64,000 nt of DNA from sequence record MN655998.1. The stretch is one strand, 5' to 3'. The notes under the pieces are model-generated. The model was not told where the DNA came from. It did no database searches and worked only from the letters and a program-made list of their open reading frames with translations. A program made the position numbers and the translations under genes. Below are positions 58,841-59,234 of this stretch, piece by piece; position 1 is the stretch's first letter; each line of letters begins with the position of its first letter. Source of the DNA: Escherichia phage E26.

Positions 58841-58864
58841 AAAAAAGCCACTCCGAAGAGTGGC
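58841..58864 (-). terminator. rho-independent terminator (3' end of candidate small RNA)
   Basis: GCCACUC-UUCG-GAGUGGC + UUUUUU. Confidence 0.55.
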
Positions 58865-59010
58865 TTATAGGGAAGGTAGCGAATCTTCCTTGTCTCCAAC
58901 CTGCTAGCGGCCTAGCAAGTGAATGCTTTAGCGTACCGGATCGCCCACATACGCTGTAATAAATGCGGCTAGGTGACGTCCAAATCATTCTAACCGCGCT
59001 GTCTTTAGTT
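58841..59010 (-). ncRNA. candidate structured small RNA (about 170 nt) between late-promoter motif and terminator
   Basis: TATAAATA at 59017-59024 (minus), no ORF or RBS, four internal hairpins, UUCG-tetraloop terminator. Confidence 0.3.
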
Positions 59011-59015
59011 CACTG

Positions 59016-59234
59016 TTATTTATATCGCTTTCTCTCGCGACGTTTTTGATCTTCTTCCTTGATAGAGTTAAACGCATCAAAAAGACACATGACACTGATA
59101 ATGAACATAACCGTATTTTCTACGATATCCCACGGCTTCGCATCAGTACAGATCCCCCAAACGGTAAGAAATGCAAATAATGCAGAAGAGATCACAAGCA
59201 TGATACTTGCTAAGATATAAAAAGTCATTTTCAT
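59016..59234 (-). CDS. small membrane protein
   Basis: Hydrophobic; basic C-terminus. Confidence 0.4.
   Translation of the reverse strand: MKMTFYILASIMLVISSALFAFLTVWGICTDAKPWDIVENTVMFIISVMCLFDAFNSIKEEDQKRRERKRYK
59017..59024 (-). promoter_or_regulatory. late-promoter-like motif TATAAATA
   Basis: Exact T4 late -10 consensus; overlaps stop codon of upstream ORF. Confidence 0.35.

Follow-up and report, generated by a model that had tools for sequence, protein, structure and literature searches.

In enterobacteria, small RNAs (sRNAs) embedded in 3' untranslated regions (3' UTRs), such as those of the DapZ and MicL type, are made from a promoter internal to the upstream gene and share the terminator of the mRNA. 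In T4, small stable RNAs are also known, namely RNAs C and D, of unassigned function (PMC3014915), and a 2010 review stated that no riboswitch or trans-acting sRNA had been functionally characterised in this phage, adding that the genomes of its relatives might suggest candidates (PMC3014915). In Phi1 and RB49, the promoter-early stem-loop (PeSL) cassettes are repeated modules whose promoter and terminator activities have been shown with reporters (Arbiol et al. 2010, PMC2839356). Here, we describe an element of about 170 nt (59015..58841, minus strand) in a 64,000-nucleotide stretch of Escherichia phage E26 (MN655998.1), this whole stretch being hereafter called the window. The element lies between the homologs of ORF118 and ORF117 of RB49. 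It is a single-copy, structured, non-coding RNA specific to the genus Krischvirus; very probably, it is functional and represents a new RNA family. A first reading of the letters alone (hereafter the sequence-only reading), which had rightly mentioned the small stable RNAs of T4, had proposed a late-expressed structured sRNA at this place; the conserved structured non-coding RNA is indeed there, and a late promoter of its own is plausible only.

The element starts with a leader of 16 nt, continues with four hairpins, and closes with an intrinsic terminator. Its parts, with the box that precedes it, are the following:

59024..59017, minus: late-promoter-type box TATAAATA, lying in the codons TAT-AAA-TAA and overlapping the ORF118 stop
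59013..58998, minus: 5' leader GUGAACUAAAGACAGC, unpaired; a single position varies, by a G to A change or by deletion
58997..58965, minus: hairpin 1, of 8 + 4 bp, with the loop UUGGAC
58955..58930, minus: hairpin 2, whose apex (58948..58937) is hypervariable
58923..58895, minus: hairpin 3, with an invariant 8-bp core CUUGCUAG/CUAGCAGG and the loop GCCG
58889..58871, minus: hairpin 4, GGAAG / CUUCC, with the 9-nt loop AUUCGCUAC
58866..58841, minus: intrinsic terminator, with the stem AAGCCACUC/GAGUGGCUU, a UUCG loop, and U6, preceded by the A/U-rich UAUAA

Directly 5' of hairpin 4 stands an unpaired GGAGACAA linker, and a GCAUU, reminiscent of an RNase E site when read from the sequence, occurs in each of the two single-stranded linkers (58966..58962 and 58926..58922). 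Hairpin 4, CCUAUAA, the GC hairpin of 7-9 bp, and U6 (5-7 U in relatives) form together a 3' module with the layout of Hfq-type sRNAs, a resemblance only.

The element is present in 58/58 Krischvirus records, at 96-99.5% identity, and in all 58 GenBank records it is unannotated as an RNA. We aligned 22 copies, 18 of them distinct and all in the same synteny, drawn from 12 phage records, one IMG/VR contig (L004), two metagenome contigs (L072 and L097, kept from an 18-mer scan of metagenomes in which 85 of 87 matches were discarded as chance), and six Logan/ENA contigs found through their ORF118 homologs, with 83-90% identity. Apart from the apex of hairpin 2, the nucleotide diversity (pi) of the element in these 22 copies is about 0.012, with 0.013 for the leader and hairpin 1 and 0.011 for hairpins 3-4 and the terminator. 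At third codon positions, the corresponding values are 0.194 in ORF118, 0.216 in ORF116, 0.096 in ORF119, and 0.047 in ORF117; diversity in the element is 4 times below that of synonymous positions in ORF117 and 16 times below that in the adjacent ORF118. When the apex of hairpin 2 is set aside, 16/159 columns are variable, four of which come from one loop inversion, versus 62% of third positions in ORF118 and 26% in ORF117. In the most diverged copies (L004 and L103), the ORF118 protein is 81-83% identical and the RNA is almost unchanged outside the hairpin-2 apex. Moreover, loops, linkers, and leader are as conserved as stems. The 12-nt apex itself (pi of 0.26) changes about as fast as neutral sequence and shows no fewer than 8 alleles, as well as indels of 1-2 nt; since such a segment lies inside the element, the invariance that surrounds it does not come from a shortage of mutations. 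Purifying selection on this interval is strong and acts on its sequence and pairing as an RNA of the transcribed strand. As to the apex, some phages carry a GUGA loop of the GNRA type on three G-C pairs and others a UUAA loop, and this variability could reflect either neutral drift or a specificity-switching loop.

The minimum free energy (MFE) fold and the alignment consensus concur on five helices, which are hairpins 1-4 and the terminator (58866..58845). With its terminator, the element folds at an MFE of -59.1 kcal/mol (z=-3.0); without it, the sense strand reaches -44.3 kcal/mol (z=-1.9) and the antisense strand -38.5 kcal/mol (z=-0.5). The substitutions found among the copies respect this fold: standard pairs occupy 99.6% of pair cells, versus 29-44% in controls with slid partners. 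One pair is fully compensatory and four others show one-sided, pair-preserving changes, three of them in hairpin 2 and one in hairpin 4. In the hairpin-2 stem, all substitutions preserve pairing (A-U/G.U; G-C/G.U/A-U; G-C/G.U; and G.U/A-U/G-C at the apex pair), the G-C/G.U/A-U series being a classical two-step compensatory path, and hairpin 4 has a single A-U to G.U change (L103/L104). The stem of hairpin 1 is invariant in all copies, including two G.U pairs, its sole change (C to U) falling in the loop. Hairpin 3 gives the exceptions: the predicted 4-bp lower extension is weakly supported, a C to A change breaking one of its pairs (L010/L011), and in its outer part one G to A change affects an isolated closing pair. 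The remaining substitutions are confined to unpaired parts (loops, linkers, leader). On the opposite strand, the five invariant G.U pairs and every one-sided change would become A.C mismatches and, as the sense strand also folds better than the antisense strand, we conclude that the constraint acts on the RNA of the gene strand.

Among the checks that the sequence-only reading had named for its proposal were a structure-aware search of Rfam and an assessment of conservation and covariation. The second gave strong conservation and thin covariation, with one double-sided pair. The first returned no known RNA family: at gathering thresholds, Rfam 15 has 0 matches in the whole 64-kb window, and in a permissive scan the best alignments, driven by the terminator, are to EF3314_EF3315 (RF02634, 23.9 bits for a threshold of 100) and RNAI (RF00106, 22.8 bits for a threshold of 47). 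ARAGORN found 0 tRNA or tmRNA genes in the window, and RB49 is reported to be without tRNA genes (PMC1524935). No similarity to the element was found in 5,426 E. coli genomes or in 185,579 GTDB species genomes. Phages outside Krischvirus, T4 included, have no copy, and only the terminator hairpin matches unrelated phages. Within the phage itself, nhmmer and a covariance model run on the window and on the 50-100 kb region of RB49 recovered no paralog, the element scoring 213 bits and the next match, on the terminator only, at most 19 bits. Two kinds of motif were tried and rejected. The unpaired GGAG at 58897..58894 recalls the T4 RegB/S1 consensus, a single-stranded 11-mer GGAGRAYARAA (PMC1702504), and the full site GGAGACAAGGA (58897..58887) fits it poorly: position 6 holds a C, which is strongly disfavored, and positions 7 and 10 do not match. 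Concerning CsrA-type motifs, the four or five GGA triplets are about the number given by chance, and one of them is lost in phage FL15.

At its 3' end, the element is bounded by the strong terminator that the sequence-only reading had announced (GCCACTC at 58864..58858, TTCG at 58857..58854, GAGTGGC at 58853..58847, and T6 at 58846..58841). A terminator scan recovers this hairpin, the GEC-3S record annotates the same hairpin as a terminator and the motif downstream as a promoter, and Nolan et al. list at the homologous position of RB49 (58720-58737, 'ORF117c<--ORF118c') a TransTerm terminator with a confidence of 100. In the same list, the next terminator upstream is located between 57B and ORF125. 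These terminator calls, with the gene order, leave no doubt that the interval forms, by its position, the 3' end of the early ORF125-dmd-ORF118 unit of transcription. The hairpin (58866..58845), the A/T-rich tract that follows, and the promoter at 58812..58784, between two ORFs, make up a PeSL cassette, so that the definition of these modules applies at the 3' boundary of the element only; the promoter part recurs at other loci and the RNA body does not. In FL15 (L008, PP400778), the terminator loop is exactly inverted, from TTCG to CGAA (homologous to 58857..58854), with an intact stem, a signature that suggests hairpin-mediated inversion or template switch.

At the 5' end, ORF118 terminates as ...CGA TAT AAA TAA, the TAA stop occupying 59018..59016 (minus), and TATAAATA is, as the sequence-only reading had stated, an exact late-promoter box overlapping this stop. 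T4 late promoters lack a -35 element and need only the 8-mer and an A/T-rich segment downstream of it (PMC2988020). If the box lies at -13..-6, as it does in T4 (where A is also accepted at -13), the start would be at about 59011; the first base of the element is 6 nt downstream of the box. The exact consensus is kept in 21/22 copies while spanning three synonymous sites of a gene in which 62% of third positions vary, and the chance of such a retention is about 0.05. The motif is also depleted in the 64-kb window, with 2 occurrences observed versus 5.85 +/- 2.1 expected. Between 50 and 100 kb of RB49 there are eight exact boxes, seven of which are published late promoters, the eighth being the box at the end of ORF118. 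More broadly, over 114 kb of sequence from this phage type, the exact motif is found at eight other places, each a published late promoter, and nowhere else as a stray box. The composition of the 10 nt past the box (6/10 A/T in the window, 7/10 in RB49) does not discriminate, since eight published RB49 late promoters have 5-8/10. We consider the box somewhat likelier to fire late than to be silent. The window holds one other copy (48862..48855, minus), in the intergenic space past tk and 27 nt ahead of a signal-peptide ORF (48821..48519) that has a good ribosome-binding site; this copy equals Pl:48756, a late promoter published for RB49. In RB49, another published late promoter stands right after the gene 23 terminator (94996-95368; L109 44996-45368, plus). 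Between it and ORF162w, 365 nt carry no annotated ORF, and this stretch is a long late leader or else another candidate for a late non-coding RNA.

The explanation that we prefer, tentatively and at somewhat less than an even chance, is that of an sRNA that acts in trans, that lies within the early dmd operon's 3' UTR, and that has an additional, late transcript starting at the box. Early in infection, the RNA would be the 3' UTR of the polycistronic mRNA, possibly freed from it by cleavage at the two GCAUU linkers; late in infection, a discrete transcript would run from the TATAAATA box to the terminator. This product would most likely act in trans, as an sRNA that a protein or a base-pairing partner recognises; it is the invariance of loops and linkers, equal to that of stems, together with the sRNA-like 3' layout, that points to such an action. 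A more ambitious version, which we regard as rather unlikely, would make it the T4 superfamily's first regulatory RNA acting in trans, with a dual biogenesis (early from the 3' UTR of the dmd operon, late from a gp55 promoter). In that version, with the same reserve, this genus-wide RNA might bind either an RNA chaperone of the host or an RNA, from host or phage; it might, no more probably, reprogram gene expression or blunt an RNA-targeting host defense alongside Dmd; and the hairpin-2 apex might, again with rather low probability, be a dispensable or specificity-switching loop.

Several observations weigh against an sRNA of this kind. The several hairpins of the sequence-only reading exist and are thermodynamically modest, the sense strand without terminator folding at -44.3 kcal/mol with a z of only -1.9. 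The single double-sided pair makes a thin covariation signal; since no variation is seen in hairpins 1, 3, and 5, pairing there is neither supported nor contradicted. Nearby promoters and leaders have a pi of 0.02-0.08 and ORF117 is low too; the good conservation of these neighbors means that part of the low diversity may be regional. Regarding a partner in trans, the longest perfect complementarity to phage transcripts is 11 nt versus 10-13 nt in shuffles, and a duplex scan by 30-nt windows over about 100 kb of phage sequence gave a smooth continuum with no outlier. This lack of unusual complementarity speaks against the RNA being an antisense partner or a type I antitoxin for the small hydrophobic ORFs of the operon, and against pairing with the repeated early leaders. 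Concerning the late promoter, the published 43-nt hidden Markov model of RB49 late promoters (Nolan et al., 17 sites) omits the box at the end of ORF118, whose upstream flank is purine- and GC-rich versus the T-rich flanks of the called sites. Published late promoters are reported only before orthologs of T4 late genes, and no late gene follows this box, the next start codon on the same strand being 280 nt away, past the terminator. Tyr-Lys-stop written with preferred codons readily gives TATAAATA by chance. In the L072 contig (MAVA01000028.1, 3325-3345; homologous to 59012-59030), a 14-nt deletion removes GATATAAATAACAG and the whole late box; ORF118 receives a new C-terminus, an A-run goes from A5 to A7, and the downstream RNA is 98% intact. 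Finally, a search of the literature on Krischvirus found no transcript data.

The main rival, which the sequence-only reading had itself named as a refutation of its proposal, is a purely cis-acting 3' UTR, in which the hairpins and the terminator would protect the early polycistronic dmd mRNA from 3' exonucleases or tune termination ahead of the next promoter cassette, with no independent transcript and no function in trans, TATAAATA being then a by-product of coding for Tyr-Lys-stop. We find it somewhat unlikely. It accounts well for an element that by position ends the early unit, for the persistence of the RNA in L072, which has lost the box, for the absence of this box from the published list of late promoters, and for the failure of the scans of phage sequence to find a target; the PeSL stem-loops of Phi1 and RB49, moreover, are experimentally shown terminators or attenuators (PMC2839356). 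A stabilizer, however, needs stems, yet the loops, the linkers, and the 16-nt unpaired leader are equally conserved; the other terminators of the early region sit a few nt past the stop codon, without any such hairpin array; and the late-box motif is otherwise purged from non-promoter positions.

A small chance is left to the box as a late promoter for ORF117 and the genes beyond it, the RNA being then a long 5' leader and the terminator an attenuator or a processive-antitermination checkpoint for late read-through. ORF117 is indeed on the same strand, 280 nt downstream, another RB49 late box precedes a 365-nt ORF-free stretch, and the authors who described PeSLs called their stem-loops terminators or attenuators (PMC2839356). 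Against such a leader, a strong terminator (UUCG, 7-9 bp, U6, TransTerm 100) and a consensus early promoter are interposed before ORF117, which thus has its own promoter, and no antitermination RNA family was matched.

A slim chance goes to an element acting as DNA, i.e., a replication origin, a recombination or packaging signal, or an inverted-repeat binding site for a protein. Several inverted repeats are invariant in primary sequence, PeSL regions are recombination hot spots that form mini-circles (PMC2839356), and the loop inversion of FL15 suggests hairpin extrusion or template switching at the DNA level. The five invariant G.U pairs and the one-sided wobble changes, which are A.C mismatches on the other strand, speak for the RNA instead, as does the better fold of the sense strand; the element moreover has no repeat or iteron structure, no paralog, and no internal AT-rich unwinding element.

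That the interval is the non-functional relic of a lost ORFan cassette, hitch-hiking with the PeSL and ORF117 in a young genus, seems very improbable to us. All copies do come from one genus with at least 94% identity, the neighboring ORF117, promoter, and leader are low in diversity too, and the region is a hyperplastic zone of ORFan shuffling. A relic, however, should not be 4 times less diverse than synonymous positions of ORF117 and 16 times less than ORF118, nor should its substitutions respect pairing, and the neutral rate of the 12-nt hairpin-2 apex shows that the supply of mutations is not limiting.

The interval is non-coding. The sequence-only reading had claimed that it holds neither an ORF nor a ribosome-binding site: a Shine-Dalgarno sequence is indeed absent, and two mechanical ORFs do cross it, which are broken in relatives. 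One, of 55 aa (ATG, 58988..58821), is shortened to 15-24 aa in most relatives; the other, of 48 aa (TTG, 58899..58753), ranges from 22 to 48 aa because of changes in homopolymer length, the copies differing by indels of 1-2 nt in hairpin 2 and in homopolymer runs. Neither has a Shine-Dalgarno sequence at suitable spacing. GenBank records disagree on the 'hypothetical protein' ORFs of the gap (FL15 and L015 Delraymugoa, L008/L015 831-977; UPWr_E1, L012 797-940; SFHK24, L009 888-989), which run through the terminator and the promoter and are probably spurious calls. A small protein missed or inconsistently called by annotators, to which the two mechanical ORFs and the ORFs annotated by some records could lend color, is thus a negligible prospect, given that the annotated ORFs differ from record to record and extend through terminator and promoter, that both mechanical ones are truncated or frameshifted in relatives (15-24 aa; 22-36 aa), and that no start codon has a suitably spaced Shine-Dalgarno sequence.

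The window belongs to Krischvirus, the RB49/Phi1/GEC-3S group of T4-related coliphages; its closest record is phage ELT4 (99.5% match), and the region is covered by 58/58 matching phage records. Gene order is the same in GEC-3S, Phi1, ELT4, and RB49: 57B, ORF125, ORF124, dmd, ORF122-ORF118, a gap of 278 nt, then ORF117, ORF116, ORF115, and 55.3. Among the early genes of RB49 (50-62 kb), no other gap is as long as this one between ORF118 and ORF117; the rest span 57-113 nt. An indel of about 600 bp seen in relatives was rejected as an artefact of the search tool, which had joined repeated promoter cassettes; the gene order there is identical. The features that flank the element are the following:

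59234..59016, minus: ORF118 homolog, 72 aa, a small hydrophobic protein of phrog_15168, whose gene closes the early ORF125-dmd-ORF118 unit
58812..58784, minus: sigma-70-type early promoter of the PeSL cassette (TTGACA, 17-nt spacer, CATAAT; 11/12 match)
58737..58552, minus: ORF117 homolog, 61 aa (DUF7421), downstream neighbor

The early promoter drives ORF117; it bounds the element and is outside the RNA. ORF117 is nearly invariant in Krischvirus, with a pi of 0.000-0.002 at first and second codon positions, and it has relatives in about 115 T1-like siphophages of the Drexlerviridae, whose 72-80% protein identity implies gene exchange between unrelated phage families. A link between the RNA and ORF117 was rejected: these T1-like phages have the ORF117 gene with an upstream gap of 83 nt and no such RNA. 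On the other side, the identity of dmd was confirmed with Pfam and PHROGs, the other small ORFs falling in families without assigned function. Dmd of the T4 type is about 45% identical and stands in another gene order, and a neighborhood scan with this single protein reached close relatives only. Between dmd and the RNA (59980..59016, minus) lie four or five overlapping small hydrophobic ORFs (52-80 aa, in PHROG families), likely membrane peptides co-transcribed with the Dmd antitoxin.

Two further observations concern the cassettes of this region. A common leader, ATAATACACCCATCGAAACGAAACAC..., follows several early promoters (57919..57794, 58899..58753, and 60810..60364, minus) and is visible in mechanical ORFs as the recurring pseudo-peptide 'YSIIHPSKRNT'; its sharing by several early promoters indicates that PeSL cassettes carry a conserved 5' UTR besides their promoter. 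At about 75.3 kb of RB49 (L109 25300-25334, plus), another terminator shares the flanks TATAAGCC...GGCTTTTTT with that of the element, which hints at a recurring terminator type in this phage.

The element offers a concrete and testable candidate of the sort that the 2010 review envisaged from relatives of T4, being single-copy, genus-wide, constrained at the RNA level, and placed in the operon of the Dmd antitoxin. As several Krischvirus phages are under development for therapy, the role of a conserved non-coding element in their genomes is of practical relevance. Even if it were only a 3' UTR stabilizer, its description would still correct spurious ORF calls in several records and show that PeSL intergenic regions can hide an additional functional RNA.

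Among described RNAs, ColE1 RNAI and EF3314_EF3315 share with the element three consecutive hairpins ending in a terminator (58927..58839), but the alignments are sub-threshold and carried by the terminator, there is no plasmid-replication or Enterococcus context, and the element is not a member of either family. Like RNA C and RNA D of T4 (PMC3014915), it is a small structured non-coding RNA of a T4-type phage with unassigned function; unlike them, it has no tRNA cluster around it, the RB49-type phages being devoid of tRNA genes, and it shows no sequence similarity to T4 or to any other phage outside Krischvirus. With the PeSL cassettes it has in common the terminator, the A/T tract, and the sigma-70 promoter (58866..58784), as well as the hyperplastic setting of small ORFans. 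PeSLs, however, are repeated modules of about 100 bp, whereas the body of the element (about 150 nt, leader and hairpins 1-4) is single-copy and falls outside their definition; the article that describes them does not mention ORF117/118, late promoters, or small RNAs (PMC2839356). Compared with the sRNAs of the DapZ and MicL type, the element is longer (about 170 nt, four hairpins), is encoded by a lytic phage, and has as its putative promoter a gp55-type late box rather than a host sigma-factor promoter; its sRNA type, read from its layout, is putative. It nevertheless resembles them by a promoter at the end of the upstream coding sequence, a terminator shared with the mRNA, a possible processing from the longer mRNA, and a 3' module in which an A/U-rich linker joins a hairpin to a GC hairpin that carries a U-tail.

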